A stretch of 54,415 nucleotides of DNA from a virus. The DNA is taken from positions 1 to 54,415 of IMG/VR virus record IMGVR_UViG_3300038455_000034; one strand, given 5' to 3'. Both the position numbers and the translations under genes were made by a program. Shown one piece after another: positions 22,711-46,880 of this stretch; within the stretch, counting starts at the first letter, position 1, and each line of letters starts with the position of its first letter. Below the pieces are notes generated by a model that saw only the letters and a program-made list of their open reading frames with translations, had not been told where the DNA came from and did not search any database.

Positions 22711-22889
22711 AACGACGCAAGCCAATCGATCCTCGTGGCCACGCCGAAAAGATCGGCAGTCCGCCCGTCTTGATCGCGTGCAAGAACTGCCGGGCGACGC
22801 GACTACGAAACCAGAAATGGGGCGAGTCGTGTCAATTCTCCGTCGCTGCTAATGGTGGGCCTAACGAGAGACAGGCGGCGACGGGATGA
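22707..22889 (+). CDS. Hypothetical basic protein (60 aa; start uncertain, alternatives 22593/22617)
   Basis: The frame ends in an ATGA overlap with the RuvC gene, so something is translated here. The GTG 22707 start gives a coupled arrangement. Confidence 0.4.
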   Translation: MKRRKPIDPRGHAEKIGSPPVLIACKNCRATRLRNQKWGESCQFSVAANGGPNERQAATG

Positions 22890-23416
22890 TTTTCGTCGGC
22901 ATCGATGCGGGCAAGCACGGCGCCATTGCTTGGATGGACGGAGAGAGAAAGCGTATCGAACTGCACGATCTTCCGCTGCATTCCGACGGCTCCATGGATT
23001 ACGGGCGTATGAACGCTCTCGTAGGCTCCGCCGCGCTTGATTCTCATGGAGATGCTATCCTCGCCACCGTCGAAAACACGATCAGCATTCCGCACGCAGC
23101 CCGCGGCGAGCGCTTCATCCCGGCTTCTGACCGCATCCTTCACATGACTCTGGGAGCTTGGCTCGCGTTGCTGGGGGCGCACCATGTACCGACCACCCTG
23201 GTATACCCGAAAACCTGGAAGCGGACCATGCTGGCAGGAATCGCCAACGACGAACGGATCGAGGCCAAGATTCTCAAGCAGCGATTCCAGGATCACCCGA
23301 TAGCGTCGCAGCTTCATGGTCCGCGCGGCGGACTGCTCGACGGCCGCGTCGATGCGCTCTGGCTGGCCGAATACGGCCGCGTGACATGGAGATTCGGAGG
23401 AAAGAGGGCACCGTGA
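22886..23416 (+). CDS. RuvC-like Holliday junction resolvase
   Basis: MIFVGIDAGKHGAIA.. N-terminus, ..TVENT.., and C-terminal ..DGRVDALWLAEYG match the acidic residues of the RuvC/RusA-type RNase H fold. Confidence 0.75.
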   Translation: MIFVGIDAGKHGAIAWMDGERKRIELHDLPLHSDGSMDYGRMNALVGSAALDSHGDAILATVENTISIPHAARGERFIPASDRILHMTLGAWLALLGAHHVPTTLVYPKTWKRTMLAGIANDERIEAKILKQRFQDHPIASQLHGPRGGLLDGRVDALWLAEYGRVTWRFGGKRAP

Positions 23417-25366: not shown

Positions 25367-25558
25367 CTAGGCGGCGCTTCCTGTTGTTGTGGCTCCCTTG
25401 GCGCTTTCCTTGGCAGCTTCCCTGATGGCCTTGGTTGCCCTGAAGCGCCCGCGACTTGGACGCTTGATGGAGCTATTGTCGAAAAGGCGGAACAGCCCAG
25501 CCCGGAGCTTGCGCTCAGAGTCGGTGATGTCCTTCCGTTTCCTCTTGTGCTTTCGCAT
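25367..25558 (-). CDS. Small very basic protein (63 aa)
   Basis: ATG at 25558 is preceded by aggaga at 5-nt spacing. Sequence begins MRKHKRKRKDITDSERKL.., and GC3 is high in this frame. Confidence 0.6.
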   Translation of the reverse strand: MRKHKRKRKDITDSERKLRAGLFRLFDNSSIKRPSRGRFRATKAIREAAKESAKGATTTGSAA

Positions 25559-26001: not shown

Positions 26002-26134
26002 GACACGGAAGTCCTTAGCGAATATGGCAAAACATGCGATTGACGCGCAAATTGGTGTGGCAGTTTTGCTGGCCGCTGGCGGAGCTAGAAATGCGGTATC
26101 TAGTGAAATCGCATGGTTAGGCGTCTAATGAATG

Positions 26135-26150
26135 TGGCACAGCTCATGCA
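26135..26150 (+). promoter_or_regulatory. Sigma-54-type (-24/-12) promoter candidate
   Basis: TGGCAC-agctc-aTGCA differs from the consensus TGGCAC-N5-TTGCA at one position, with correct GG/GC spacing. It lies 13-34 nt upstream of the first small ORF. Confidence 0.35.
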
Positions 26151-26183
26151 GTACTACCAGACATGACGACGGAGGCAAGGACG

Positions 26184-26393
26184 ATGACGAAGCAGACCAT
26201 GGAAGAGCAAGTGACGGCAGCATTTCGCGGTGAATACGCGATGTTGGTCGAAGGACTCACCGCAGAAGATGAGCGTGTGAATGCATTGGAAACCGCGCGC
26301 GAACGAGCTGCCGCGCTGATTCCCGAAGGTCGTTTCGGTAGTTTTGATGACGAAATGTTGATCTTCGCCGAAGACCCTACATCGAATACGTAG
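26184..26393 (+). CDS. Small acidic protein (69 aa), cassette 1
   Basis: ATG 26184 follows gacggaggcaaggacg. Track ORF 26163..26393. Confidence 0.55.
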   Translation: MTKQTMEEQVTAAFRGEYAMLVEGLTAEDERVNALETARERAAALIPEGRFGSFDDEMLIFAEDPTSNT

Positions 26394-26408
26394 CCACCCC
26401 CCCCCCAC

Positions 26409-26440
26409 CGCGCGCGTGCGCTCGCAGATCGGCGCGCTCG
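26409..26440. repeat. Junction element copy 1 (GC-palindrome after the stop codon)
   Basis: ..ccaccgcgcgcgtgcgctcgcagatcggcgcgctcggacca.. preceded by a C10 run (26397-26406). Confidence 0.6.
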
Positions 26441-26483
26441 GACCAATCACGGACCCTAGGACAACAAACGGAGGAATAGGACC

Positions 26484-26726
26484 ATGAAAATCAAGCCCGC
26501 TCAACGCCGAAATCTGCGCTGCAAACTGTCCGGTGACACATTTGTTTCGCGCGGTCGCATCTATATTAGCACCTGTCCAGCTGACAACTATGCGACGCTT
26601 GAGGAGCTGCGAGACGGTTCGAACGACGCAGGCCAGAGCGACGAGCATCTCAACGCGTTTGTGCGAGACCCGGAGCATCATCGCTACCAGGGTAAGCTCC
26701 TGTACGTGCCAGTTACGATTCTCTAG
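26484..26726 (+). CDS. Hypothetical protein (80 aa), cassette 2
   Basis: Track ORF with RBS acggagg. Confidence 0.6.
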   Translation: MKIKPAQRRNLRCKLSGDTFVSRGRIYISTCPADNYATLEELRDGSNDAGQSDEHLNAFVRDPEHHRYQGKLLYVPVTIL

Positions 26727-26753
26727 CCACAGACGACGGAGGCAAGGACGACC

Positions 26754-26930
26754 ATGGCGACCAAACAAGAAAATATCGATATGCCAGGCGGTACGCAAAT
26801 CGTCGTGAGAAGCGTATTTGCTGGTGCTCCCTTCCGCGCGCTCGCATGCGAGCAGCAGTTGGCGCGGCGAGAGGCTTTGGACATCGCGCGGATATTGCGC
26901 GCGTTCCGCGAGTGGACCAGAGACGAGTAG
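26754..26930 (+). CDS. Hypothetical protein (58 aa), cassette 3
   Basis: Its leader gacgacggaggcaaggacga is identical to that of cassette 1. Translation is MATKQENIDMPGGTQIVVRSVFAGAPFRALACEQQLARREALDIARILRAFREWTRDE. Confidence 0.45.
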   Translation: MATKQENIDMPGGTQIVVRSVFAGAPFRALACEQQLARREALDIARILRAFREWTRDE

Positions 26931-26936
26931 TTCACC

Positions 26937-26954
26937 CCGCGCGCTCCCGCGCGC
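26937..26954. repeat. Junction element copy 2 (hairpin ccgcgcg-ctcc-cgcgcgg)
   Basis: A perfect 7-bp GC stem 7 nt after the stop codon, followed by ggaccaaccacagactgagga. Confidence 0.7.
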
Positions 26955-26996
26955 GGACCAACCACAGACTGAGGACCAGATAGGAGGCACGGACCA

Positions 26997-27236
26997 ATGA
27001 CCAAACTGATGCAGGAAAATATCCATAGTGCAATCGACGCATCACAAAGCAACCTCGATGTCTGGACGCGTGAGTTAGAATCACGCGGTATGCGAACGGT
27101 GCACGGGGCCAGGCTGGATCGTGATGGCGTCAAGCAGGCTGCTACTGCTCTCTATGCTATCGCACCGCCCGAGGAACGCGCGCAATGTACGCTGCCCGAA
27201 GCGATCGCGGAGGCTCACAGGTATTTTTTCGAGTAG
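26997..27236 (+). CDS. Hypothetical protein (79 aa), cassette 4
   Basis: Track ORF with RBS taggagg. Confidence 0.6.
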   Translation: MTKLMQENIHSAIDASQSNLDVWTRELESRGMRTVHGARLDRDGVKQAATALYAIAPPEERAQCTLPEAIAEAHRYFFE

Positions 27237-27240
27237 CCCA

Positions 27241-27262
27241 CCGCTCGCGCTCCTCGCGCGCG
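27241..27262. repeat. Junction element copy 3
   Basis: ccgctcgcgc-tc-ctcgcgcgcgg is an imperfect palindrome, followed by accacagaccgaga. Confidence 0.6.
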
Positions 27263-27331
27263 GACCACAGACCGAGATGACGATACGGACCAGCACAGAG
27301 GAAGACACCATGGCGACGAAAGGACATCACG

Positions 27332-28294
27332 ATGTGTAAGCCATTGAGCGGTTACGCGAGTAGGCCGGGCGAGATCTACTGCATCCCCGAGAGAACACAC
27401 TCTCATAGCGAGCTCGCCTGGGCGTTCGGCCTGAACGATAGTGACGTCTCGTTCTATCGACAGAACCTAGCCAAGTACGAGTTTACCCCACCGGAAGATC
27501 CGAAACTGTGGGGAGACCTGTCCAAGTGGGAGCTGCGGGTCGATGAGGACGCGACGCCGGACTGGTTTGATCGTGAAAAGGTTCGCGTCCACATGGAGAT
27601 GCTTGTCGAGTCGATGTTCATCCGCGACGAACGCGGGGTACTCTGCGGAGGGTGTTGGATCCTCGACGGAGAGAGGGCGCGGATCAAAGGGATCCTTGGA
27701 GGAACGATCGTAGGCGTCGTGAACGGTGCCAGCCTCGACGGTGCCCGCCTCGACGGTGCCCGCCTCGACGGTGCCAGCCTCGACGGTGCCAGCCTCGTCG
27801 GTGCCAGCCTCTACCGTGCCAGCCTCTACCGTGCCAACCTCGACGGTGCCAGCCTCGACGGTGCCCGCCTTGACGGTGCCCGCCTCGACGGTGCCAGCCT
27901 CGACGGTGCCAGCCTCGACGGTGCCAGCCTCGTCGGTGCCCGCCTCTACCGTGCCAGCCTCTACCGTGCCAGCCTCTACCGTGCCAACCTCGTCGGTGCC
28001 CGCCTCGACGGTGCCCGCCTTGACGGTGCCAGCCTCGACGGTGCCCGCCTCGACGGTGCCCGCCTCGACGGTGCCCGCCTCGACGGTGCCAGCCTCGACG
28101 GTGCCCGCCTCGACGGTGCCCGCCTCGACGGTGCCCGCCTCGACGGTGCCCGCCTCTACCGTGCCAACCTCGACGGTGCCAGCCTCGTCGGTGCCAGCCT
28201 CGTCGGTGCCTATATTCAGGATGGTGGATGGATTCCGGCGGGGTGGAAGCGCGGTCAAAACGGACTATTGGTCAAGGATGACACTACACGATGA
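27332..28294 (+). CDS. Pentapeptide-repeat protein (N-terminal ~130-aa domain plus 32 consecutive pentapeptides)
   Basis: 320-aa ORF. The units are [25 protein letters not shown] x 32, matching the A(D/N)LXX-type quadrilateral beta-helix signature. Confidence 0.85.
27725..28204 (+). repeat. 32 x 15-bp near-identical tandem repeat (ggtgcc[ac]gcctcgac and variants)
   Basis: Read directly. Only a few variant positions occur per unit. Confidence 0.95.
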
Positions 28295-28998: not shown

Positions 28999-29174
28999 TT
29001 ACCCAGCGAGAACTGTATCTCGCCCAGAAGCATCTCGACCTACAGACGCCAGCCGATGACGAGCCTGCGACGGAATACGAGCGCGACTATGACCCCGACG
29101 ACGAGCCGGGCGACGGCGACAAAGGCGCGATCGTGCTGGTTGACGGCGAAATCGCCGCGAAGGCGGAGGTGTAG
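28995..29174 (+). CDS. Small strongly acidic protein (59 aa)
   Basis: ATGA overlap. Translation is MITQRELYLAQKHLDLQTPADDEPATEYERDYDPDDEPGDGDKGAIVLVDGEIAAKAEV. By my count it has 17 D/E against 5 K/R. Confidence 0.5.
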   Translation: MITQRELYLAQKHLDLQTPADDEPATEYERDYDPDDEPGDGDKGAIVLVDGEIAAKAEV

Positions 29175-29176
29175 CG

Positions 29177-29368
29177 ATGCTGCGATTCATCCTGCGCCGA
29201 GAGACCTATTCAACGGTCGATGAACTGCGGACATCGGATCTCTTCACGGTGGACGCGGAAGTCCAAGCGCTGGAAGATGCGCTGTGCGCCGGTGGGCGAG
29301 GAGAAGCGGGATTCGACAGGACCGAGCTTGTTGGCGTCGAGGTGCTTCCGAAGAAGGCGGAGGTGTAG
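29177..29368 (+). CDS. Hypothetical protein (63 aa)
   Basis: Track ORF. It shares the 17-nt 3' end gaaggcggaggtgtagc with the preceding gene. Confidence 0.55.
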   Translation: MLRFILRRETYSTVDELRTSDLFTVDAEVQALEDALCAGGRGEAGFDRTELVGVEVLPKKAEV

Positions 29369-29370
29369 CC

Positions 29371-30240
29371 GTGGCGACAATCCTCCACCCCGGCCTGCAC
29401 CTCGGCGTCCCGCATTCCGTCTATCACTCCGACCCGAGCGAGCGCCCGTCGCTGTCAAGCCACGTGGCGAGCACGCTCATCTCGAAGTCGCCAGGGCACG
29501 CGAAGATGATCCACCCGCGCTTCGGCGCCCTTCGCGGCGACTCCAGCGACGAAATGGATACCGGCTCGATTTTGCACGGCCTACTTCTCGGTGGCGGTGC
29601 CGAGCTGGTTGCCGTCGATGCCGATTCCTGGCGCACCAACACGGCCAAGGCGGCTCGCGATGAAGCTCGCCAGGCTGGCAAGATCGCCGTGTTGGCCGGC
29701 AAGCTAGAGAGACTTCAGAAAGCAGCCGGCTGGATTCGCATGTCATTGCCTATCGACTTGACCAAGGCGTCGACGGAGGCGACGGCGATCTGGACGTCAC
29801 AGGATTGCCCGTGCCGATGCCGCATCGATATCCTGATGCCGGACCTATGGATCTGGGACCTCAAGACCTGCGAAGATGCCTCGGTCGCGTCGGCAGACCG
29901 CAACATCGCGGCCATGGGCTACCACCTACAGGGCGCCGCCAACATCGACGGCGTCGAGTCGACGGTGGAAGGCGCCGCCGGCCGCGTCCACTTCGGATTG
30001 TGCTTCGTCGAGTGGGAGAACCCCGAGATCGGTATCGTTCGCAAGGAGGTGCGCGGGCAGCTTCTGGACGTCGGGCAGCGACGGTGGAACCGTGCGAAGG
30101 GCATCTGGGCGCGCTGTCTCGCCGACAACAGGTGGCCTGGGTACTCGACGGAGATCACGGAAGCGCAGTGCCCGCCGTGGATCGCCGCAGAAGACATGGA
30201 ACAGCAGATCGCCGGGAACGCTGGTGGGGAGCCATTCTAA
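29371..30240 (+). CDS. PD-(D/E)XK exonuclease (RecE C-terminal / DUF3799-like)
   Basis: GTG 29371 follows ggagg. Motif ..RIDILMPDLWIWDLKT.. (D..D-L-K) and a later ..GYHLQ.. are consistent with this nuclease fold. Confidence 0.65.
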   Translation: MATILHPGLHLGVPHSVYHSDPSERPSLSSHVASTLISKSPGHAKMIHPRFGALRGDSSDEMDTGSILHGLLLGGGAELVAVDADSWRTNTAKAARDEARQAGKIAVLAGKLERLQKAAGWIRMSLPIDLTKASTEATAIWTSQDCPCRCRIDILMPDLWIWDLKTCEDASVASADRNIAAMGYHLQGAANIDGVESTVEGAAGRVHFGLCFVEWENPEIGIVRKEVRGQLLDVGQRRWNRAKGIWARCLADNRWPGYSTEITEAQCPPWIAAEDMEQQIAGNAGGEPF

Positions 30241-30242
30241 CC

Positions 30243-30743
30243 ATGCGAACGATAGTCCTCACGAAGGGGAAGGTTGCCATCGTCGACGCCGAGGACTACG
30301 CCACCTTGCGCGGTTTCAAGTGGTATGCTCTGTTCCGCGATGGTAGCTGGCACGCGGCCCGGACGGTGAAGCGCAACGGAGAGAAGCGAACCGTCTACAT
30401 GCACAGGCAGATCATGGGGGAACCTGAAGGGATGCTTGTAGACCATCGCAACAGAGACGGGCTCGACAACAGGCGAGAGAACCTGCGCGTCTGCACGAAG
30501 AGGCAGAACGCGTGGAATGGACACAGAAGGATTCGGAACAAGACGAGTAGGTTCAAGGGCGTGTGTCGCCAGTGCGGCCGAGTTGGAGCGACGGGGAGGC
30601 CATGGAGGGCCACGATCACCGTAGCGGGACGGCAGAAGTATCTCGGATGGTTCAAGACTCAAGCCGACGCCGCACGCGCCTATGATGATGCTGCCGTGTT
30701 TCACTTTGGCGAATTCGCGCGCACCAACTTCCAGAGGAGATGA
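30243..30743 (+). CDS. HNH endonuclease with AP2 DNA-binding domain (homing-endonuclease type)
   Basis: ..VDHRNRDGLDNRRENLRVCTKRQN.. is HNH_3-like, and ..SRFKGV....WRATI...GRQKYLGWFKTQADAARAYDDAA.. is AP2. Confidence 0.85.
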   Translation: MRTIVLTKGKVAIVDAEDYATLRGFKWYALFRDGSWHAARTVKRNGEKRTVYMHRQIMGEPEGMLVDHRNRDGLDNRRENLRVCTKRQNAWNGHRRIRNKTSRFKGVCRQCGRVGATGRPWRATITVAGRQKYLGWFKTQADAARAYDDAAVFHFGEFARTNFQRR

Positions 30744-30746
30744 CCA

Positions 30747-31787
30747 ATGACGACGAGCAGAACTTTCACAAGCAGTCCGGCGGTAAGGGCAAGAGTGCCA
30801 TTGATCATCGGCCTGTCTGGCCCAAGCGGATCTGGAAAGACCTATTCCGCGCTGGAGCTGGCTACCGGGATCCAGTCCGTCACGGGCGGAGACATTCATG
30901 TCGTAGACACCGAGAGCAAGCGGGCTCTCCACTATGCTGACTATTTCAAGTTCATCCATACTCCGTTCGCGCCACCGTTCGGCCCGCTGGACTACATGGC
31001 AGCGTTTCAGCATTGCATCTCGAAGGGAGCCAAGATCATCATCGCCGACTCGATGACCCTGGAACACGACGGCGAGGGCGGGGTGTTGGATCAGATTGAA
31101 GCTTTTCTGACGGCCAAGGCGGGGGACGACTGGGAGAAGCGCAATCGGTTCCTAATGCTCGCCAACGCGAAGCCGAAGGCGGAGCGCAAGAAGCTCAACC
31201 AGTACATCGTGCAGAACGGTGACGTGGTGTGGATCCTGTGCTACCGCGCGCAGGACAAGACCAAGCCACTCAAGAGGGGCCAGACGTCGCCAGACGGAGA
31301 GAAGATCCTTCACCTTGGGTGGCAACCAATCACGACTTCGCCCTTGGTCTTCGAGATGACGGCAAGGTTCCTTCTCGGCCCGTGTTCCGAGGGGCACCCG
31401 ACCCTGAATCCAGGCGAGGAGGCCGAGAAGATGATGATCAAGAATCCTCGGCAGTTTGCTGGGTGGGTGGAGCCCGACCAGCAACTGAGCCGAGACCTGG
31501 GTGCCAAGATGGCCAAGTGGGCCGCCGGGGACGCATCGGCGCAACCGACGGACGCGAAGCCTGCCAAGAAGCGCGACCCCGTTGCCGGCCTGATGACAAT
31601 CCTCGGGCTCGGCCAGTGGCCAAACGCTGAGGCGCGCATCCTTTCCTCGCTCGGCAAGAATCACCGCAGCGAGCTAGATGAGACCGACATCGACAAGCTC
31701 ACGGCGACCTACAAGTCCGTGAAGAAAGACGCCGCGGAATTCGACCGGCTTTGCCCACCGCTGCCAGCAGGAGGCAGCCACGGCTAG
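30747..31787 (+). CDS. Sak4-like / AAA_24-type recombination ATPase
   Basis: Walker A GLSGPSGSGKT, then ..KIIIADSMT.. (Walker B-like). It is adjacent to the exonuclease. Confidence 0.7.
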   Translation: MTTSRTFTSSPAVRARVPLIIGLSGPSGSGKTYSALELATGIQSVTGGDIHVVDTESKRALHYADYFKFIHTPFAPPFGPLDYMAAFQHCISKGAKIIIADSMTLEHDGEGGVLDQIEAFLTAKAGDDWEKRNRFLMLANAKPKAERKKLNQYIVQNGDVVWILCYRAQDKTKPLKRGQTSPDGEKILHLGWQPITTSPLVFEMTARFLLGPCSEGHPTLNPGEEAEKMMIKNPRQFAGWVEPDQQLSRDLGAKMAKWAAGDASAQPTDAKPAKKRDPVAGLMTILGLGQWPNAEARILSSLGKNHRSELDETDIDKLTATYKSVKKDAAEFDRLCPPLPAGGSHG

Positions 31788-32619: not shown

Positions 32620-32822
32620 ACGCGGCGATCCTGTTTTCCGGGTGGTCGGGGTTGGGGTCGGGGTCGCGGTCGCGGTCGCGGTCGGGGTCGCGGTCGGGGT
32701 CGGGGTTGGGGTCGCGGTCGGAGTCGGGGTCGCGGTCGGGGTCGTGGTCGGGGTCGTGGTCGGGGTCGTGGTCGCGGTCGCGGTCGCGGTCGTGGTCGCG
32801 GTCGCGGTCGCGGTCGGGCTAA
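32616..32822 (+). CDS. Candidate 68-aa Ser-Arg/Ser-Gly/Ser-Trp dipeptide-repeat protein (tentative)
   Basis: ATG 32616 forms an ATGA overlap with the upstream stop. All repeat codons are TCG/CGG/GGG/TGG. Stop TAA is at 32820-32822, with a hairpin 13 nt downstream. A second frame (Gly-Val/Ala-Val) is also open. Confidence 0.3.
   Translation: MNAAILFSGWSGLGSGSRSRSRSGSRSGSGLGSRSESGSRSGSWSGSWSGSWSRSRSRSWSRSRSRSG
32644..32817. repeat. 29 x hexanucleotide GGTCGN microsatellite, G-rich on the + strand
   Basis: Counted directly. The units are ggtcgg/ggtcgc/ggtcgt/ggttgg/agtcgg. Confidence 0.95.
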
Positions 32823-33071: not shown

Positions 33072-34370
33072 ATGGACAATTCACAGGACAAGAAACCCGC
33101 AACCACCGACGCCCACACGGGGAGCGGAGGACAGGCTACTGACGAAATCGACTGGGCAGATGACTACCTCCGCGATCTGTGGGAGGTCGCTGCCAAGGCC
33201 GTCACTAATGTAGACCCTGCCTACTGTATGACGCCCGGAGGTGTAAAGGCGGCTGTGCGGGCGGTGCTTGGCGCGATGGGAGCGCCGCGGGGAACGGAGG
33301 CGCCCAGGTCGGAGGCGAGAGACCTTGAGAGCCTGACCAATATCATCGACTGGCTTCGATTGCGCGAGCCATCCGTGGTAACCTCCAGCACTGAGATTGC
33401 CAAAGCCGCTCTCGCCTATGTCGGAGGCGAGCTGGCCCGGGTGCGAAGGGAACTGGCGACCGCTGAGGCCGCTTTGGTGGCATCGGCCAAGGCAACTTCG
33501 GAGCGGCTTGAAAAGGCAGAGACGACGGTAGACAGCCAGGCCGACCAGCTCGCCGCTCTCAAGGCTGACCTCGCCGCCTCCCGCACCGAACGTGACTCTG
33601 CTCGGGACGAGCTTGGCAAGGTGCTCGGATTGCGCGCTGTGGACTTCGCCCACGGTGAGACCGTGCGAATCGCTGAGATGAAAGCCGCGGAGCATGCGAT
33701 GTACTCGACCATCCTGGAAAAAAACACCGAACGCGCGATGAAGGAAGGCTGCCAGAAGCAACTGCGCGACATCGCGGACGCACTCGGCCCCACAGACGGA
33801 AAGCTCGACGACGAAGACGAGGACAACAGCACGTCTGCCAGGATAATTCGCTACTTGGAGGGACTGCGACAGCAGCTCGCCGAAGCCCGCAAGCCGGTGC
33901 AACGTCTCGACGAGGTCGCTGCCCTCCAAGACAACTGGGACAGCTATGGCGGCAAGGCGCCAACGGCAGAGGCGGTCGCGACGGCGCGGCAGATTCTGCA
34001 GTCCACTGCGGCGCCTGTCAGTGGTGGAGGTGTGCAGCTCGACTGGGACAATGGTGACTGTGATATCGAAATCGGGGCTGACGGCAAGATAATCGTCGAG
34101 CCGGCGGAGCCGTTGAGTGACAAGGAAATACTCGCCGTCATTGCCAGTTGGTTCAACCTTGTTAGGCCTCCCGGGATGAGCAATCACGAGCACTTGGTCA
34201 AAGTGGCAGCCGAAGCCCAGCGGCAAAAGGGGGCGAGCCTCGACGTCCCAACAACCGAATTCGTCCGCGCCGTCCGGGCTGCCGTACGCGAGTCGACTGC
34301 GCTAGACGAGCTGGACAAGCGGGTACGCGCTGCCATCGAAATGCTCGATAAAGCGCAGGTGCGGACGTGA
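33072..34370 (+). CDS. Coiled-coil protein of unknown function (432 aa)
   Basis: ATG 33072 follows gagaaagga. It has a long helical middle and a C-terminal ..NWDSYGGKAPTAEAV.. domain. Confidence 0.65.
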   Translation: MDNSQDKKPATTDAHTGSGGQATDEIDWADDYLRDLWEVAAKAVTNVDPAYCMTPGGVKAAVRAVLGAMGAPRGTEAPRSEARDLESLTNIIDWLRLREPSVVTSSTEIAKAALAYVGGELARVRRELATAEAALVASAKATSERLEKAETTVDSQADQLAALKADLAASRTERDSARDELGKVLGLRAVDFAHGETVRIAEMKAAEHAMYSTILEKNTERAMKEGCQKQLRDIADALGPTDGKLDDEDEDNSTSARIIRYLEGLRQQLAEARKPVQRLDEVAALQDNWDSYGGKAPTAEAVATARQILQSTAAPVSGGGVQLDWDNGDCDIEIGADGKIIVEPAEPLSDKEILAVIASWFNLVRPPGMSNHEHLVKVAAEAQRQKGASLDVPTTEFVRAVRAAVRESTALDELDKRVRAAIEMLDKAQVRT

Positions 34371-34377
34371 AGGAGCG
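34357..34377. repeat. 21-bp direct repeat, copy 1 (aggtgcggacgtgaaggagcg)
   Basis: Identical to 35849-35869. It spans a stop/start junction. Confidence 0.95.
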
Positions 34378-35290
34378 GATACCCGACGGAAGCCTGCGGG
34401 GTAGCGTCGAGGTAAATGCAAATGAGTCCTCTGTATGGTCAGACACCGTCGGGATAGCCAAGTTGGCATCAGCAGCACTGAAAGTACCTTTATATCTTCG
34501 CGATGACGCCGAAGCAGAGGCGCTGGCCGCATTGGTGGACGCGTATCAACGATTTGATCCAACGAAAGCATCCTGGACAACCTACGCTTTGCCTCGTGCG
34601 CGCGGGGCAATATTGGATTTTCTCCGTCGCTGGAATCCATTAAGCCGTGGCATGCGCGCCAAAGTCAAGACGGGTCAAATACACGATGTGGTTAGAGTGA
34701 GCGCCGATACCAAGGACCGCTACGGACGCTCCATTCTCGATCAGATCCCTGCCATTGAGGCATCTGAAAAGGACATAATTCATGCCGTGGATAGTGTGAA
34801 ACGAATTTCCTTGCTACCCATGCGTTTACGCAAGGTTATCAAAGCGCGTTTACATGGCAGTAGCATCGCTGAGATTGCCAAGAGCGAGAAGATCCATGTT
34901 ACACGAGTTTCACAACTCATTGGTGAGGCGCTCCATTGGATAAGCGAACTTGACAAATTGAGCCACCATCCCCGCAATATATACGCCGCACGTTGGCGTT
35001 TAAAGATATTGATTGGGCGAGGCCGACGTAAATGCCAGATATGTGGGCAGCCAGTGGGAATAAGCGAGCGCCAAGGCCCCATTTGGTCATGCTCAGATAA
35101 GTGTCGGCGCCGACGCAAACTGGAACGCGACGCCGCCAATAGGCGCGAGCATGCCATCTGCACACAGTGTCGGTACTGTGGGCGTCCATGTGAAACAGGT
35201 AACATCTGCTATGCCCATCGCAAGCGATTGTTAAGAAGTACTGACATGACGGCGGATATTCGCAGTCGCAGTCAAAGGGGCTCGACATGA
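34367..35290 (+). CDS. Sigma-70-family (ECF-sized) sigma factor with a Cys-rich C-terminal extension
   Basis: Region-2-like ..DAYQRFDPTKASWTTYALPRARGAILDFLRR.. and region-4-like ..LRKVIKARLHGSSIAEIAKSEKIHVTRVSQLIGEAL.., followed by several CxxC pairs. Confidence 0.75.
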   Translation: MKERIPDGSLRGSVEVNANESSVWSDTVGIAKLASAALKVPLYLRDDAEAEALAALVDAYQRFDPTKASWTTYALPRARGAILDFLRRWNPLSRGMRAKVKTGQIHDVVRVSADTKDRYGRSILDQIPAIEASEKDIIHAVDSVKRISLLPMRLRKVIKARLHGSSIAEIAKSEKIHVTRVSQLIGEALHWISELDKLSHHPRNIYAARWRLKILIGRGRRKCQICGQPVGISERQGPIWSCSDKCRRRRKLERDAANRREHAICTQCRYCGRPCETGNICYAHRKRLLRSTDMTADIRSRSQRGST

Positions 35291-38944: not shown

Positions 38945-39244
38945 ATGGACGACATCTTTGCACTTCAGGGAGACCAGATTATTCGCAAGCTCGACAAACG
39001 CATCGCCGGGGAACTCGAACCGGCGAGGGACCTGGTGATTGCTGGCAGCCACAGTAGCCCGCACATCATCGTCGGGCGCTGCTACACGCGCATGGAGCGA
39101 GATAGGAGGCTCGTCCGCGTGTCGCGCGCGACGATCATCAAGCATGCGGACCGGCATCGGCCCACGAAACTCATCAAGGGAGACTACGAAATTTATCCCC
39201 AGCGCGAGCGCGGCGGCGACGGTGACCGGGCCGTGGAGGACTGA
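38945..39244 (+). CDS. Hypothetical protein (99 aa)
   Basis: RBS caggagag. Confidence 0.6.
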   Translation: MDDIFALQGDQIIRKLDKRIAGELEPARDLVIAGSHSSPHIIVGRCYTRMERDRRLVRVSRATIIKHADRHRPTKLIKGDYEIYPQRERGGDGDRAVED

Positions 39245-39245
39245 C

Positions 39246-40802
39246 ATGGCTAAGAAGCTCTATCACATGACCCCGGCACACAGAAGGCGCCTCCACGACT
39301 GGTCCGATAAGGTGCTGGCCAACGCGCGCAGAACAGACCCCATGTCGGCCGAGGATCGCGCGAAGGCCGAGGGCGCCATTCGCGGCATCTACAACAGCAT
39401 CGGCCTCGGCGGAGGGAAGGTGCGCGTGGTCTTTTGCGCATCTCCTGACGTCGCCAGAATTGCTGGCCGCCTAGCGTTTTCCGCGCGCTGGCTACGCGAG
39501 CATCCCGAATCCCAGCGCAAGATCTTCGGCCGTCTCCTGCGACCGGCAGAGCTAAGGGATGCGCTCCGCCGAGCCGCGACTATGTTGGTGGTGGGGACCA
39601 GGTCTCGCATGAGCGATTTGGAGCCGAAAGTGCTCCCTCTCGTCCGAGCTGCCGCTGCCGCTGCCGCTGCCGCTGACGCTGCCGCTGCCACTGCCGCTGC
39701 CGCTGCCACTGCCGCTGCCGCTGCCGCTGCCGCTGCCACTGCCGATGCCACTGCCGCTGCCGCTGACGCTGCCGATGCCGCTGCCGATGCCGATGACGCT
39801 GACGCTGCCGCTGACGATGCCGCTGCCGCTGCCGCTGCCACTGCCGCTGCCGCTGCCGATGCCGATGCCGATGCCGCTGCCGATGCCGATGACGCTGACG
39901 CTGCCGATGACGATGCCGCTGCCGCTGCCGATGCCGCTGCCGCTGCCGATGCCGCTGCCGCTGCCGCTGCCGCTGCCGCTGACGCTGCCGATGCCGATGC
40001 CGCTGCCGCTGCCGCTGCCGATGCCGATGCCGCTGCCGCTGCCGATGCCGCTGCCGCTGCCGCTGCCGCTGCCGCTGCCGATGGGATCGTCGTGGCATGC
40101 ACCTACTACTTCGTGCGGGCGTATAGGCGATATTGGTGGAGGCGCTTGCAGGGCGGAAACCTCCGCACGTGGCATCTAGTCAGGTGCGGGTTCTTTCTCC
40201 ACGTCGCCAAGCTCGACATCAACTGGCGTAGCTATCCCCAGTACGAAGCTGCGGCGTTTGCGTCGGGTCCGCGGGTCATGTATCGCGACTTTTGTCTGGT
40301 CTCCGATCGTTGCTCCGTGTTGCACAACGATGAACGAAATCGGCTGCACTGTGAGACTGGCCCGGCCATCGGGTGGAGAAATGGATCCTCCATGTACTAC
40401 TGGCACGGCGTCCGGGTGCCGAGGCGATTGATCGAGAGGCCTGGTTCCTACACCTCCGACGAGTACAAGAGACTCCCGGCGGAACAGCGGCGCGCTCTTG
40501 GTGAGCATCTGGGATGGGACAAGGTGCTTGCGATGCTCGGATCGTCGTCGGTTGACGACGCGATCATCGACGGCTTGGCGTATGAGCTTGTCAGGTGCTC
40601 CGATCACTCACAATACCTACGCATGCAGAGCCCGGTGCTGCAAGACGGGTCACAACCATACTATTTGGAACCCGCGCATGAGGATTCGAAGACGGCGGCT
40701 GGAGCACGCAAGTGGCGATTGGCTCGCGAGCCTAGCGGGAGATGGTGGACGCCAGGTGAGTGTGACGAGAATCCAACTATCAAGATCGGCCAGCACACGT
40801 GA
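39246..40802 (+). CDS. DUF6745-like protein interrupted by a ~144-residue poly-Ala/Asp tract
   Basis: ATG 39246. The N-terminus ..TDPMSAEDRAKAEGAIRGIYNSIGLGGGKVRVVFCASP.. and C-terminus ..LHCETGPAIGWRNGSSMYYWHGVRVP.. are recalled family signatures. Confidence 0.65.
   Translation: MAKKLYHMTPAHRRRLHDWSDKVLANARRTDPMSAEDRAKAEGAIRGIYNSIGLGGGKVRVVFCASPDVARIAGRLAFSARWLREHPESQRKIFGRLLRPAELRDALRRAATMLVVGTRSRMSDLEPKVLPLVRAAAAAAAAADAAAATAAAAATAAAAAAAAATADATAAAADAADAAADADDADAAADDAAAAAAATAAAAADADADAAADADDADAADDDAAAAADAAAAADAAAAAAAAAADAADADAAAAAAADADAAAAADAAAAAAAAAAADGIVVACTYYFVRAYRRYWWRRLQGGNLRTWHLVRCGFFLHVAKLDINWRSYPQYEAAAFASGPRVMYRDFCLVSDRCSVLHNDERNRLHCETGPAIGWRNGSSMYYWHGVRVPRRLIERPGSYTSDEYKRLPAEQRRALGEHLGWDKVLAMLGSSSVDDAIIDGLAYELVRCSDHSQYLRMQSPVLQDGSQPYYLEPAHEDSKTAAGARKWRLAREPSGRWWTPGECDENPTIKIGQHT
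39648..40080 (+). repeat. About 72 hexanucleotide units (gctgcc/gctgac/gatgcc/actgcc) encoding Ala/Asp/Thr low complexity
   Basis: Read directly. It produces open shadow frames in several other frames. Confidence 0.95.
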
Positions 40803-40885
40803 GCCGCGAAGCCAAAGAAGCCAAGAGACAAGAGATAGAAGAACTGACAGCGAGGATCGCTCTTCTCACTGGGATAACAGGATGA
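40799..40885 (+). CDS. 28-aa coupled micro-ORF (tentative)
   Basis: GTGA overlap upstream and ATGA overlap downstream. Translation is VSREAKEAKRQEIEELTARIALLTGITG. Confidence 0.25.
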   Translation: MSREAKEAKRQEIEELTARIALLTGITG

Positions 40886-41640
40886 GATGGGAGGACGAAA
40901 GGTATGTCAGGATCTACACCAGGGACACGTCCGCTCTGGCGGCGCTCGGGTGGGAGGCGAGGGCTTTGCTTTGGGAGGTGTTCCGCAAGATGGATAGGGT
41001 GGGCGTTCTCGCCCTCGGGAAGCATGGGGCACGGGGATTAGCAGCATTGACGGCCATGCCGGTGGATCTTGTGGAACGTGCCTTAGCCCTCCTGATAGCC
41101 GACGGGGTTTTGGTCATGAGGGGAGATGATCTCTTCTGCCCAAACTTCATGCACGCACAAGAATGCGTCAAATCAAACAGCCTACGTCAAAAAGAGAAAA
41201 GGGAAAGGGCATACCTCAAAACAACACTAGAAGTGTCCCACGCGACACATCCCGTGTCAGAAACGACACAAAATGACACCGACCGACACTCCGAGACACT
41301 CCGTGCTGTACCCGTGCTGTTCCAAGAAGAGATAGATCAATCTGACGCCAAGCGGAAACGGAAGAAACATGACTCGGAATACTCGCCCGGGTTCGTCGAG
41401 TTCTGGAGGGCGTACCCACGCAGGACGGCGAAGGAGGCGGCCTGGAAGGCGTGGCCGGGCGACGAGCTAACCAAGGAAATTCTAGAGGCCCTCGAATGGC
41501 AGGTCAAGGGATGGACCGACATTGCTTTCGTGAAGCACCCAGCATCGTGGCTCAATGCAAAGTGCTGGCTTGACGAAAAGTCGGAGTGGACGAAGCGAGA
41601 GGAAACAAGGCCAGAGCCAAGGACACCGATTCAGGATTGA
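40882..41640 (+). CDS. Replication organiser (DnaD/DUF1376-like)
   Basis: ..YVRIYTRDTSALAALGWEARALLWEVF.. and C-terminal ..FVEFWRAYPRRTAKEAAWKAW...WLNAKCWLDE.. are typical of phage replisome organisers. It is directly upstream of the primase-helicase. Confidence 0.6.
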   Translation: MRWEDERYVRIYTRDTSALAALGWEARALLWEVFRKMDRVGVLALGKHGARGLAALTAMPVDLVERALALLIADGVLVMRGDDLFCPNFMHAQECVKSNSLRQKEKRERAYLKTTLEVSHATHPVSETTQNDTDRHSETLRAVPVLFQEEIDQSDAKRKRKKHDSEYSPGFVEFWRAYPRRTAKEAAWKAWPGDELTKEILEALEWQVKGWTDIAFVKHPASWLNAKCWLDEKSEWTKREETRPEPRTPIQD

Positions 41641-41642
41641 CC

Positions 41643-43532
41643 ATGCGCCAGGTAGACCCGATAGCGGCCGAGGAAGCATTCCGCGCGAAGCTGCGCGAGG
41701 CTGGGCTCGTTCCACCTGACAGCCTGCACACCGACGGCAAGTTGGTGCGCATCGGAGTGGACGGCAAGAACCCAGGCAAGCGCGATGGGTTCTACGTCTA
41801 CCACTCCGATGGGATTCCCGCCGGCGCATATGGCGACTGGTCAGACCGCGACGGGTGGAACACGTGGTGTTTCTTCAACACGTCGGAACTTTCGCGCGAG
41901 GAGTTGGAGGATCACAAGCGCCGTCTTGATCGGGCGCGGGCGGCGCGATCCGAAGAAGAGAAATCCATCAGGGCTGAAGCACAAGCACGTGCAAACAGGA
42001 TTTGGAACTCGGCCACGGAGTGCCAGGAACACCCGTACCTGACGCGAAAGCAGGTCAGAGCGTTCGGGATACGCGAGGTGCAGGGTCGGCTGGTTGTTCC
42101 GGTGATGGATCGCGACGGTCAGATCCACTCGCTCGAATTCATCGACGCTGACGGAACGAAGATGTTTCTTTCCGGAGGGCGTAAGGCTGGCTGTTGGTTT
42201 GGTCTCGGAGAACGTGGAAGCGTGCTTTGCGTGGCCGAGGGATACGCCACGGGCGCTAGCATTCATGAGGCTACTGGTCACTACGTCGCGGTGGCGTTTG
42301 ATTGCGGAAACCTGTCGGCGGTGGCCAAGGCCCTTCGCGAGATGCACCCGACGGCGAGGATTCTCATCTGCGAAGATGACGACCAGAAGACCAAGGGGAA
42401 CCCAGGCGCGAGTGCTGCGGCAAAGGCAGCACAAGCGGTCAACGGACTGATCGCGGTGCCCGACCTTCCACAGGGCGGTGACTTCAACGACCAACACGCC
42501 GTCAAGGGCTTGGAGTCCGTCCGAGATACCATCGACGAGACCATCAAGTCAGACCGAGGCCCGATAGACGCGTGCGACCTGTTCCCGATGGTCATGGGTG
42601 AGATCATCGCGCGCAAAGAGGGCAAGAGCCGCAACACCTTGAGCACTGGGATCAAGTCGGTCGACAATCTCACGCGCCGGATGTTTCGCGGGAACGTGAT
42701 CGTGATCGGTGGTCTACCGGGTTCGGGCAAGACGTCGGCCGCCCTCGGTATCGTCGAGCACAACGCTGCACGCGGGGTGCCGTGCTACGTGGTTTCGATT
42801 GAGATGGACCGATTCGAGATAGGCGTGCGGATCTTGTCCCACAACAGCAGCGTGCCAGCGTCGGACATTTTCGACGACCGCGTAAGGTTGAATTGCGAGC
42901 GGCTGCGGTGGGGAGACATCATGGAGGCGAACGGGCGAATGGAAAAAATCCTGCTCACCCTCGACGATCGGCCTCTCACCCTAGCGGAAATCGTCGAGCA
43001 GGCGCACCTCTGGTTTGCCACGAAGGTCAGGGCTGCGGGCCACGACTTCGGATTGATCGCCGTCGACTATCTCGGGCTCATCAAGTCCGAGGACCGAGGG
43101 GAGAACCGTAACCGTGAGGTGGCGGAGATGTGCAAGGGCTTGAAGGTGTTGGCGCGCACGCTCCGATGCCCGCTGATTCTGTGTGCGCAGCTCAACCGTG
43201 CGCCCACGAAGCGAGGGGGAGAGCCCGAGCTTTCCGACCTTCGCGATAGCGGAGAGATCGAGGCGGTGGCCGACCTGGCGATTTTCCCATGGCCGTGGCC
43301 GCGCCAGATCGTCAAGGACGAGCAAACGGGCGAGCTGCGCACCGAGAAGAAGCAGGCCAAGCCCGGCGAAGATGACAGCGACGTGTGGATCGTTCGCAAG
43401 AACCGCAACGGTCCCAAGGGCGCGGCGCGCGTTCTCTGGCGGCCCGAGGTTATGCAGTACACCGACGTTATCAGGGACTACGACGGTCCTGACACGCGGC
43501 CGAGCTGGCAGGACGGGAGGGACAGCGAATGA
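41643..43532 (+). CDS. Primase (TOPRIM) - DnaB-like helicase fusion
   Basis: TOPRIM-like ..LCVAEGYATGASIHEATG..ILICEDDD.. followed by Walker A GGLPGSGKTS with a DnaB C-terminal-like region. Confidence 0.85.
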   Translation: MRQVDPIAAEEAFRAKLREAGLVPPDSLHTDGKLVRIGVDGKNPGKRDGFYVYHSDGIPAGAYGDWSDRDGWNTWCFFNTSELSREELEDHKRRLDRARAARSEEEKSIRAEAQARANRIWNSATECQEHPYLTRKQVRAFGIREVQGRLVVPVMDRDGQIHSLEFIDADGTKMFLSGGRKAGCWFGLGERGSVLCVAEGYATGASIHEATGHYVAVAFDCGNLSAVAKALREMHPTARILICEDDDQKTKGNPGASAAAKAAQAVNGLIAVPDLPQGGDFNDQHAVKGLESVRDTIDETIKSDRGPIDACDLFPMVMGEIIARKEGKSRNTLSTGIKSVDNLTRRMFRGNVIVIGGLPGSGKTSAALGIVEHNAARGVPCYVVSIEMDRFEIGVRILSHNSSVPASDIFDDRVRLNCERLRWGDIMEANGRMEKILLTLDDRPLTLAEIVEQAHLWFATKVRAAGHDFGLIAVDYLGLIKSEDRGENRNREVAEMCKGLKVLARTLRCPLILCAQLNRAPTKRGGEPELSDLRDSGEIEAVADLAIFPWPWPRQIVKDEQTGELRTEKKQAKPGEDDSDVWIVRKNRNGPKGAARVLWRPEVMQYTDVIRDYDGPDTRPSWQDGRDSE

Positions 43533-43729
43533 CCACGCCAATCGAGAACCGCGCCATGTGGAAGATTCACCATGCGACGATGGCCAAGGCCAGAGCGCAA
43601 GGCGCAGATTTCGCCTGCGCCACCGAGCTTGGATTCGCTGCGACCGATGCGGCCGGTGGAAAGGCGCGTGAGGTGAAGCTGTGCGAGCGATGCATTCGGC
43701 GCGGAGTCGCCGCGGAAAGGAAGCCGTGA
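43529..43729 (+). CDS. Hypothetical protein (66 aa)
   Basis: ATGA overlap. It ends ..GVAAERKP. Confidence 0.55.
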   Translation: MTTPIENRAMWKIHHATMAKARAQGADFACATELGFAATDAAGGKAREVKLCERCIRRGVAAERKP

Positions 43730-44085
43730 TCAACTGCGACTGTTCCACCGACGAAGGTGAAAGCGTCCGCTGTTCTCGGGTGACGATTCGGAAGGCAAGG
43801 AAGCCGCACCAGTGTTGCGAATGTGGCGAGCCCATCCTGCCAGGGCAGAGGTATGAAGACGCCACCGGAATCGACTGCGATGGCGAAGCGTACGGGTACA
43901 GTACGTGCATGACCTGCAAGGCGATTCGCGACGACTACTGCCCGCATGGATTCATGTATTCCTGCCTGGCCGAGACGATCCAAGATTGCCTTGGCTTCGA
44001 CTACCGAACGCTTCCCAACGAACTCGAAGCGCGGCGAATCGACGAAGAAGATGCAGAGCGAGTCGCCGCGGAAAGGACGATATGA
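43726..44085 (+). CDS. Cys-rich protein (119 aa)
   Basis: GTGA overlap. It has CCECGE..C..C motifs and ends ..RVAAERTI. Confidence 0.6.
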   Translation: MINCDCSTDEGESVRCSRVTIRKARKPHQCCECGEPILPGQRYEDATGIDCDGEAYGYSTCMTCKAIRDDYCPHGFMYSCLAETIQDCLGFDYRTLPNELEARRIDEEDAERVAAERTI

Positions 44086-44372
44086 TGGCAACTCGAAGGT
44101 ATGCCGGGGCGATTCGTTACCAGCTACCAGGTTCAGACGAGCACATCGTGTTCCCAGACCCACTTTCTCCGCAGGTCGTCGACGCCGCCTACCGTGCGCG
44201 ATACCACATGGCAGGGTTAACCCAGATCGACTGCTTCCACCTCGCCTCGTGCGCGGAATTCTTGGCGGACCTAGCCGCTTGCAATTCGACGATGGAGTGG
44301 TCGACGGGAATACTGCGCGCGATGCGGAAGGTGATTCGCGAGATGGACTGTGAATCGCGAGATGGACTGTGA
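44082..44372 (+). CDS. Hypothetical protein (96 aa) with a 3' end altered by a 19-bp duplication
   Basis: ATGA overlap. The stop lies inside the second repeat copy. Confidence 0.6.
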   Translation: MMATRRYAGAIRYQLPGSDEHIVFPDPLSPQVVDAAYRARYHMAGLTQIDCFHLASCAEFLADLAACNSTMEWSTGILRAMRKVIREMDCESRDGL

Positions 44373-44374
44373 AT
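44337..44374. repeat. Perfect 2 x 19-bp tandem duplication (cgcgagatggactgtgaat)
   Basis: Read directly: 44337-44355 equals 44356-44374. Confidence 0.95.
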
Positions 44375-44402
44375 CGGTCGCCGCGGAAAGGACGGAATAG
44401 AC

Positions 44403-44705
44403 ATGACCACAGGATTTGATACAATTGAATATCTGCACTCTGGACCACCTGACCCAAGGGTCCCGGTCGCGTGCAATACTTGCGTTCCAGCCGATGTGCT
44501 CCGAACGATAGCAGAGCTCGCCCATGATTGTGCGAATGGAGTGGGCGAAACCATACCTTCCCCGGGAGGGATAGCCGGGTGTTTGCTCGCGTCCATGCTC
44601 GTCTGCGCGATGGAGCAAGTTGGAGAACATTCGGAGGTGATAAGGGCTCGAATCCTGGCCTCGATCCTGATGGGCCTCGCTGAGGAAGGCGACTTCATCC
44701 CATGA
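44403..44705 (+). CDS. Hypothetical protein (100 aa)
   Basis: Track ORF with RBS gaaaggacgg. Confidence 0.6.
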   Translation: MTTGFDTIEYLHSGPPDPRVPVACNTCVPADVLRTIAELAHDCANGVGETIPSPGGIAGCLLASMLVCAMEQVGEHSEVIRARILASILMGLAEEGDFIP

Positions 44706-44968
44706 GAAAGCTATTCGCAATTGTCCAGCAAGCCCAAATCGAGGCGTGGTGCTGGGGTTCGTGCGGAAAGGGTATCTGTGCCAGCATCGAGCTGCTCGAC
44801 GGTGTGGCGGCCATGCCCTGCGCGCAGGAGACGTGCCCGCACCTGGGCAAGGACGATGTCAAGCCGTTTGGGACGGGCAGTTTCCCGTTGCTTGGCGATG
44901 ATGGGGAATACGAGGTGTGGCTGCGGAAGTTGAATCCGCTCGACGGGAAAGGTGAGGTGCGACGATGA
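44702..44968 (+). CDS. Cys-rich hypothetical protein (88 aa)
   Basis: ATGA overlap. Confidence 0.6.
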   Translation: MRKLFAIVQQAQIEAWCWGSCGKGICASIELLDGVAAMPCAQETCPHLGKDDVKPFGTGSFPLLGDDGEYEVWLRKLNPLDGKGEVRR

Positions 44969-45096
44969 TCGGCCACCTTCTCTGCTGGCTCGGCCTGGAC
45001 GCGCGCAAGCTGTACAACTGGCCATTCTCAAGACAGCCGTGGTTCGTTGGGTGCAAGCGTCCCGGCTGCTACTGGACCAAGGAGGTTCGACGGTGA
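44965..45096 (+). CDS. 43-aa coupled small ORF (tentative)
   Basis: ATGA overlap upstream and GTGA overlap with the dam start. Translation is MIGHLLCWLGLDARKLYNWPFSRQPWFVGCKRPGCYWTKEVRR. Confidence 0.4.
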   Translation: MIGHLLCWLGLDARKLYNWPFSRQPWFVGCKRPGCYWTKEVRR

Positions 45097-46710: not shown

Positions 46711-46816
46711 TGGCCTATACGATACACCTCGTCACATAGACATTGCGCCGGGACGGCTGTTGTGACAGAATAGCCAAGTCCTACCGGGACAAGGATTCTT
46801 CGAGAGTCCGGAAGAA

Positions 46817-46847: not shown

Positions 46848-46880
46848 AGGTGAGCATGATTGATTGGCTCCTTCGCATAC

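Follow-up and report, generated by a model that had tools for sequence, protein, structure and literature searches.

A repeated stop–hairpin–leader–start junction between unrelated small genes of a metagenome-derived phage, a candidate expression adaptor and gene-swap site

We analysed a 54,415-nt viral sequence (IMG/VR record IMGVR_UViG_3300038455_000034, positions 1 to 54,415; hereafter the window), in which four short open reading frames (ORF1 to ORF4) and a nine-codon stub lie in an array and are linked by recurring junction sequences (J0 to J4, Table 1). All of these elements were present as an initial annotation of the window had described them, apart from small coordinate corrections. 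The reading that we favour, with a probability of about 0.6, is that the junction is a promoter-less two-part module, which serves as a portable expression adaptor and gene-swap site and strings together mostly orphan small genes. Sequence comparison with relatives supports a junction that is conserved as a module while its cargo is not conserved.

The three long junctions (J1, J3, and J4) have one order in common: TAG, CCACC or a run of C, a GC-only hairpin, ACCA, a CA-rich leader with ACAGAC or ACGGAC, a Shine–Dalgarno sequence (SD), and (GG)ACC(A)-ATG. The end of the stem and the ACCA tail together read GGACCA. The five units are all on the + strand and start with ATG, they have the SD 6–9 nt upstream, and 3/5 have an inverted repeat. 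After the ATG, a (GCG)-ACN-AAR pattern recurs across the units. The best palindrome, in J3, reads CCGCGCGC-TCCC-GCGCGCGG; it was correctly recognized at first, but it spans 26937–26956 and not 26937–26954. In J1, a run of ten C (26397–26406) straight after the ORF1 stop is likely to be a slippage or sequencing-error site.

Several measures set these junctions apart from the rest of the genome, in which a crude call across the window gave 71 genes. The exact 20-mer GACGACGGAGGCAAGGACGA has two copies only, at the places reported initially (26165–26184 and 26732–26751), and shuffled sequences gave no match even when 3 mismatches were allowed. Eight of the window's 26 GGACCA copies lie within 850 nt (26440–27287), and GGACC is enriched about 21-fold in the junctions. 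The within-window junction copies also share CGCGCGGACCA. TAG stops are found in 4/4 array ORFs and in 17/71 genes genome-wide. When the start regions (−45 to +27) of the five array units were aligned, the mean pairwise local-alignment score was 24.4 compared with a genome null of 13.6. Among 5000 random sets of five start regions, the highest score was 20.8 and thus short of 24.4, and 7 of the 10 array pairs were at or above the 99th percentile. Four of the five N-termini are alike, as had been claimed, with MKIK of ORF2 as the exception. The shared first residues are only partly special, because MT and MA starts are common in this genome (25/71 genes). The likeness of ACCATGGCGACSAAA (14/15 nt) and CARGAAAATATC exceeds these common starts.

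Two further sets of repeated boundaries were found in the window. One is AAGGCGGAGGTGTAGC at 29160–29175 and 29354–29369. The other is GAGTCGCCGCGGAAAGGA at 43704–43721, 44060–44077, and 44377–44392, with GTCGCCGCGGAAAGGA common to all copies. Both sets span the end of a small gene and the next SD, and the bodies of the genes are unrelated except for shared C-terminal residues encoded by the repeat. These sets show that the process is general in this genome.

The hairpins of J1, J3, and J4 fold as expected and the leaders are nearly structure-free. For 17 junctions of the window and its relatives, mean folding was −0.44 kcal/mol per nt in the stop-proximal part versus −0.10 in the 38 nt around the start. 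Perfect GC-only hairpins occur in the array and nowhere else in the genome. No T tract follows the hairpins, each of which continues into ACCA/GGACC, and a terminator scan found no terminator at the junctions. We found no sigma-70-like promoter in 26130–27340 or fitting any junction; the last 32 nt of the junctions contain 0–5 T, and J2 has a total length of 27 nt. Since there is no promoter in the junctions, the array genes would have to be co-transcribed. Rfam and ARAGORN gave no matches at the junctions. Three ideas on the signals were rejected. A composition scan for T-poor, CA-rich stretches was unspecific, with the whole + strand being T-poor. The GGACC repeats were considered as an extracytoplasmic function (ECF)-like −35 element for the phage sigma-like protein, and this was dropped since GGACC and the SD lie too close together and at no fixed spacing. 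Read-through or frameshifting at the TAG and hairpin was also dropped, as the frames beyond the stop soon close or do not match the frame of the gene that follows.

No close relative of the window was found in GenBank phages or IMG/VR. The single other copy of this phage that was found is a Logan contig, 100% identical over 10.8 kb. BLAST searches with the array region and with an 8-kb replication block (39000–46900) against 50,697 GenBank phages gave pentapeptide-repeat or short matches only, and scanning of IMG/VR with ORF2, ORF3, ORF4, the N-terminal domain of the pentapeptide-repeat protein, the exonuclease, and the 20-mer gave no matches. The relatives studied here are therefore neighbourhoods that were fetched via the exonuclease as an anchor, with homologues 43–67% identical; loci are denoted by L numbers, and L001 is a copy of the window. 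In relatives with long enough flanks, the lysin comes first, small ORFs form a variable block behind it, and the exonuclease and the next gene follow. We compared every ORF between lysin and exonuclease with the fetched loci by tblastn, and no counterpart was detected in any of them; the same comparison detected the exonuclease, the next gene, the lysin, and one upstream gene.

The layout of the junction recurs in L002, L005, L006, L010, L023, L052, L054, L055, and L056. It consists of TAG, a C-run, one or two GC-rich hairpins, GGACC or GGGAC, a CA-rich leader, GGAGG or GAGGAG, and ..ACC-ATG-ACN, and 20 of the 21 hairpin junctions start with TAG. A covariance model, R1, was built from seven TAG+CCGCGC hairpins of relatives with the window sequences left out, and it was run unfiltered on both strands of the window. 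Across ~109,000 window positions it ranked J4 first, J3 second, and J1 fourth, and each of these matches begins at or near the stop codon of an ORF.

The relatives also showed exchange. L006 and L052 are moderately close, with 72–94% nucleotide identity in shared blocks. One junction (L006 5577–5655, L052 872–954) is 94% identical from just past the stop codon to the SD, and the genes flanking it are non-homologous on both sides, the upstream pair being without BLASTP similarity. The orthologue of the L052 downstream gene (84% amino acid identity) lies two genes further on in L006, where the junction ahead of it is another one and homology starts again from the SD. The window (J3), L006, and L052 each have a single copy of the 14-mer GACCAACCACAGAC, which is in no other fetched locus except the copy of the window. 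It is always between the hairpin and the SD, ahead of three non-homologous genes.

In L002, a 108-nt direct repeat with 99% identity (4353–4460 and 4770–4877), comprising the leader and 29 codons, heads two adjacent genes, which are then fully divergent. Ahead of the first copy, a (CTACA)n microsatellite (~4315–4345) stands in place of the hairpin. A homologue of ORF1 was found in the IMG/VR contig L056 (70% amino acid identity) in an otherwise unrelated neighbourhood, where it is the first gene after a sigma-70-like promoter. Nucleotide homology between the two extends from about codon 6 to the TAG with none beyond, and window codons 2–5 align with the 5' leader of L056. Within other genomes, junctions share a 24-nt identity in L002, and TAGCGCATCCCCGTCGA is found twice in L054. 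These long identical stretches within the window, L002, and L054 each indicate local duplication or gene conversion. Together, the L006/L052 pair, the L002 duplication, and the L056 homologue support the view that exchange with breakpoints at junctions is seen directly in relatives. An indel in a 98.7%-identical overlap (L009 2667/L010 106) was rejected as cargo exchange; it concerns two copies of a 24-nt tandem repeat and is the sole indel.

In the mechanism that we propose, the first part of the module would begin at the stop codon, which is almost always TAG, and comprise the C-run and one or two GC-rich stem-loops. The second part would begin at GGACC and comprise a T-poor, CA-rich, near-unstructured leader, with the SD 6–9 nt ahead of ACC-ATG, and A-rich first codons (ACN AAR). 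Leader and first codons together would be about the mRNA stretch contacted by the initiating ribosome. At the RNA level, the hairpin would close the upstream cistron, and it may act as a barrier to 3' exonuclease, an attenuator, or a structural insulator. The leader would give any downstream ORF an always-open, strong, and context-independent translation start, and the stub may do the leader's job for the pentapeptide gene via translational coupling. At the DNA level, the mosaics of relatives suggest that the 11–24-nt identical junction stretches would serve as direct repeats on either side of each gene. Recombination at these repeats, based on homology or microhomology, or else replication slippage, would delete, duplicate, or replace genes while a working stop and start are kept. 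The exonuclease and annealase-like pair of the phage itself could plausibly carry this out. A causal role of the junction in recombination, beyond marking where recombinants survive, is what we infer from the sequences.

Several points weigh against this reading. The leader is low-complexity and the strand is T-poor, and part of the similarity and of the MT/MA N-termini could be convergent selection for good starts. Repeats of 11–24 nt are short for efficient homologous recombination, and selection alone would leave breakpoints at gene boundaries after random illegitimate recombination. The individual E-values of the R1 matches are weak (0.34–1.7). The closest relative is 67% identical (exonuclease), so exchange was mapped in relatives and none of it to the window's own junctions. 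Owing to its richness in G/U, the antisense strand gives slightly better folds than the sense strand; the sense RNA has no advantage, and folding does not tell whether the hairpins act as RNA or as DNA. The array is the hyperplastic and probably early segment of the phage genome, with early timing and co-transcription read from gene order only.

A first alternative, which we regard as unlikely, is ordinary operon punctuation. The hairpins would then be terminators, attenuators, or stabilisers and the leaders good ribosome sites; their likeness would come from constraint and composition, and the mosaics from selection. GC hairpins directly after stops and unstructured leaders with a consensus SD are what such punctuation would look like, and both the T-poor strand and the MT/MA starts are genome-wide. 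However, no T/U tract lies behind any hairpin. Moreover, the 11–24-nt identities, the TAG bias (20/21), the 14-mer that three phages have in common, and the 94%-identical junction with unrelated genes around it indicate common descent and not convergence. The repeated stretches are also longest between junctions of the same genome (window, L002, and L054).

The ORFs themselves bear on a second alternative. BLASTP found no similarity between the bodies of ORF1 to ORF4, and the initial view that the proteins are unrelated was upheld. Codon scores favour the annotated frames of ORF1, ORF2, and ORF4; for ORF3, whose coding score is the weakest, they do so marginally. This ORF has a patchwork 5' end, with a leader as in J0, ATGGCGACCAAA as in the stub, and CAAGAAAATATC as in ORF4. 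Its body contains junction-like palindromes (26834–26857), including a perfect palindrome, GCTCGCATGCGAGC (26840–26853), which resembles the junction hairpins. ORF3 may thus itself be a product of junction recombination events. A 28-nt inverted repeat (26888–26915 and 27165–27192, 23/28 complementary, core ATTGCGCGCGTTCC) connects the coding sequences of ORF3 and ORF4 in their 3' parts. The stub stop overlaps the ATG of the pentapeptide gene (27332) within ATGTGTAA, which confirms the overlap noted at first, and the stub is either what is left of a gene that was replaced or a mini-cistron coupled to the pentapeptide gene.

Pfam, PHROGs, and PADLOC gave no matches for ORF1 to ORF4 except a weak PHROG match for ORF1. 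An exhaustive HMMER search found homologues of ORF1, which are small proteins of a conserved family with the pattern TAAFRxEY ... ALxxAR ... IPxGxxGxFDD. The first five codons of ORF1 (MTKQT) are outside the family core. One library protein of 1998 amino acids matches residues 25–55 of ORF1 in 16 separate stretches. No homologue of ORF4 was found among 5.8 billion proteins, and ORF2, ORF3, and ORF4 are singleton clusters. The AlphaFold model of ORF1 has two helices and a hairpin (pLDDT 88) and that of ORF4 is helical (pLDDT 76). Foldseek searches of PDB and BFVD with these two models gave no match with E<0.7. The suggestion that the array is an anti-defence locus therefore found no support in the collections searched, as there were no family matches and the two predicted structures had no significant neighbours.

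The second alternative, which we consider rather improbable, is that the array genes are old tandem paralogues. Gene and junction would have been duplicated together, the junctions and first codons would have been held by selection on expression, and the bodies would have diverged in an arms race without junction recombination. The ORFs are similar in size (58–80 aa), tandem, and share their N-termini, and fast-evolving early genes are common in phages. Uniform divergence, however, would not be expected to leave a 20/20 identical non-coding stretch beside bodies without detectable similarity. The other members of the ORF1 family were found as small stand-alone proteins, and the L056 homologue has no related gene beside it. 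The patchwork of three other junctions at the 5' end of ORF3 and the occurrence of one junction beside non-homologous genes in relatives also argue against paralogy.

A more speculative proposal, to which we give little credence, goes beyond the favoured reading. The junction would be an integrase-free gene-capture element that is self-homogenising via the phage exonuclease and annealase and that supplies captured or new ORFs with termination and translation signals from the outset, and hairpins mimicking tRNA acceptors would cut the early RNA into stable single-gene messages. Under this proposal, ORF3 would be a gene assembled from junction fragments.

tRNA acceptor-stem mimicry alone, in which a GC stem and ACCA recruit RNase P or another tRNA-end enzyme to cut the early RNA after the stops, is very unlikely. 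ACCA, which in a tRNA acceptor stem corresponds to the discriminator plus CCA, follows 3/3 window hairpins (26442, 26957, and 27264) and is also found at the L006/L052 junction. In L056, an intergenic 7-bp GC stem (4709–4755) encloses a T-loop-like arm, GGTTCGACTCC, and ends in CCA. However, NCCA follows the stem in only about 5 of 14 junctions of relatives, and GGACCA is also found away from hairpins (26479, 26973, 26991, and 27287). The 8-bp junction stems have no T-arm and are shorter than an acceptor/T minihelix, which has 12 bp, and ARAGORN and Rfam were negative both at the junctions and on the L056 minihelix.

There is hardly any case for a site-specific cassette system (integron-like attC) or for true promoter-early stem-loop (PeSL) cassettes with promoter and terminator: small same-strand ORFs are each followed by an imperfect palindrome, and PeSLs too run from the stop codon to the SD/start ahead of orphan genes (PMC2839356), but there is no GTTRRRY in 26391–27312 and a single RYYYAAC inside ORF2, no integrase was found among the proteins scanned, no −35/−10 promoter fits the junctions, of which J2 has only 27 nt, and the phage is not T4-like. 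The cassette array with a conserved junction and exchanged cargo that was proposed initially therefore stands as far as the layout is kept, the cargo differs, and the relatives are mosaics, but the array is not integron-like, with no attC cores and no integrase found among the proteins scanned.

The array lies in a variable stretch between the CHAP lysin on one side and the exonuclease/annealase-like pair on the other. It opens the non-structural block, and the recombination gene pair follows 2 kb downstream (Table 1). Positions 1–127 of the window are identical to 54289–54415, and because of this 127-nt terminal overlap the window is a complete, circularly assembled genome of an uncultured phage, with ~54,288 bp (~54.3 kb). 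The genes are on the + strand almost throughout. No integrase family was found among ~30 proteins scanned across the genome, which are part of the ORFs only. The initial statement that no integrase or recombinase is nearby thus holds for integrases among these proteins, but not for recombination genes in general, as the exonuclease, an HNH gene, a gene with homologues that bear AAA_24, and a resolvase are within ~4 kb.

Table 1. Array elements and other genes of the window; genes with PHROG/Pfam as basis were mapped by PHROG and Pfam matches.
Feature	Position	Strand	Description	Basis
J0 (ORF1 leader)	26156–26183	+	ACCAGACAT and first 20-mer copy GACGACGGAGGCAAGGACGA containing SD GGAGG; no hairpin	
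ORF1	26184–26393	+	69 aa, acidic, pI 4.2; TAG stop	
J1	26394–26483	+	CCACC and C10, long GC hairpin 26408–26441, ACCA, GGACC x3, CA-rich leader, SD GGAGGA, GGACC-ATG	
ORF2	26484–26726	+	80 aa; N-terminus MKIK, the sole deviant one; TAG stop	
J2 (short)	26727–26753	+	CCACAGAC, second exact 20-mer copy (26732–26751), ACC; no hairpin	
ORF3	26754–26930	+	58 aa; TAG stop	
J3	26931–26996	+	TTCACC, perfect 8-bp hairpin 26937–26956, ACCA, leader GACCAACCACAGAC (26956–26969), SD TAGGAGG, GGACCA-ATG	
ORF4	26997–27236	+	79 aa; TAG stop	
J4	27237–27309	+	CCCA, bulged GC hairpin 27241–27263, ACCA, CAGAC, CA/GA-rich leader, SD GAGGAAG, ACACC	
Stub	27310–27339	+	MATKGHHDV*, 9 codons	
Pentapeptide-repeat protein gene	27332–28294	+	320 aa; last unit served by a junction	Pfam PF00805
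Large genes, presumably tail	1–22 kb		No family assignment	
Holliday-junction resolvase	22886–23416			PHROG/Pfam
CHAP lysin	23652			PHROG/Pfam
Small ORFs	24.4–29.4 kb		No family match	PHROG/Pfam
DUF3799/exonuclease VIII-like gene	29371–30240	+		PHROG/Pfam
HNH endonuclease	30243–30743	+		PHROG/Pfam
phrog_1366 protein	30747–31787	+	Annealase-like; homologues bear AAA_24	PHROG/Pfam
Sigma-like protein	34367–35290			PHROG/Pfam
Primase-helicase	41643			PHROG/Pfam
Terminase	48206			PHROG/Pfam
Portal	49759			PHROG/Pfam
Major head protein	52259			PHROG/Pfam

Other features of the neighbourhood were noted. The single exact match of the window to the sigma-54 −24/−12 pattern, TGGCAC-N5-ATGCA (26135–26150, +), is non-coding and on the correct strand, 34 nt ahead of the ORF1 ATG. 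Just upstream of it are two inverted repeats (25958–25972/26055–26069 and 26030–26041/26107–26118). A very basic 63-aa ORF with a good SD, AGGAGA (25367–25558, −), is the sole minus-strand call in the neighbourhood of the array. It points away from the array, and the 230 nt between the two are suggestive of a divergent regulatory region. The HNH gene between the exonuclease and the annealase-like gene is also present in L005 and L053 and is absent from L002, L004, L006, L052, L054, and L055. In the non-structural block there is a 200-nt tract (32621–32821) of degenerate hexamer tandem repeats (GGTCGC/GGGGTC).

This case bears on the old question of how phages fill their variable regions with orphan genes that are expressed at once. 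Clear examples of the 'linker' idea in modular phage evolution are few beyond T4-type PeSLs, and the array would be a compact, promoter-less version with legible anatomy in a phage lineage known from metagenome contigs only. If the module works as a portable start of translation that does not depend on context and brings its own insulator, it could be of use in GC-rich hosts. It is also a candidate hotspot at which the phage exonuclease and annealase-like proteins would recombine DNA.

In the modular theory of lambdoid phages, Susskind and Botstein, and later comparisons of lambdoid genomes, reportedly proposed short conserved boundary or 'linker' sequences as sites of homologous exchange between unrelated modules. 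Unlike those linkers, the linker of the array has a defined anatomy (stop, hairpin, leader, and start) and is repeated in tandem in one genome. Similar to integron attC arrays, small promoter-less ORFs on the same strand are each followed by a foldable imperfect palindrome. Unlike integrons, the array has no R''/R' core sites or attI/Pc, no integrase was found among the proteins scanned, and exchange would rely on homology instead of a site-specific recombinase. In synthetic biology and in natural leader ORFs, bicistronic translation-initiation designs and coupling mini-cistrons free expression from the influence of the sequence downstream. The nine-codon stub is like these in having a strong SD and in ending inside the start of the pentapeptide gene (ATGTGTAA), and it may be the remnant of a displaced gene.

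In Cluster K mycobacteriophages, start-associated sequences and extended SAS (SAS/ESAS) are found at non-structural genes in one orientation (Pope et al. 2011, PMC3203893). The SAS is an asymmetric, SD-containing sequence a few bases before the ATG, with a 13-bp consensus (GGGATAGGAGCCC) 3–7 bp ahead of the start codon and 11–19 copies over half a genome. An imperfect inverted repeat is often upstream at a variable spacer, the genes served are of different families, and the function is unknown (PMC3203893). The array likewise has an SD-containing start repeat in one orientation and an upstream inverted repeat. The resemblance is in layout only. The SAS consensus had 0 matches with up to 2 mismatches. 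In contrast to SAS/ESAS, the inverted repeats of the array consist of G and C only and sit directly against the upstream stop, the repeat takes in the first codons, and 3–5 local copies lie in 1.2 kb.

In T4-type phages, PeSL cassettes are intergenic repeats that run from the stop codon via a GC-rich stem-loop to the SD/start (Arbiol et al. 2010, PMC2839356; Comeau et al. 2014, PMC4122927). They cluster in hyperplastic regions before orphan genes, and it is at these modules that indels and replacements have their ends when related phages are compared. Each cassette has a strong sigma-70-like early promoter (−35/−10 and an upstream AT-rich tract), and recombination of neighbouring cassettes gives mini-circles (PMC2839356; PMC4122927). 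Similar to PeSLs, the stem-loops of the array (J1, J3, and J4; J0 and J2 have none) lie between the stop and the SD/start, and the module is in a plastic region before orphan genes. In relatives (L006/L052 and L002), breakpoints were seen at the module. Unlike PeSLs, the array junctions have no sigma-70 promoter or AT-rich tract, the repeat includes the TAG, the CA-rich leader, and the first codons, and the phage belongs to a 54-kb lineage of metagenome contigs and not to the T4-like myoviruses. By this comparison, the junctions may be regarded as a promoter-less analogue of the T4-type PeSL cassettes and the mycobacteriophage SAS/ESAS.

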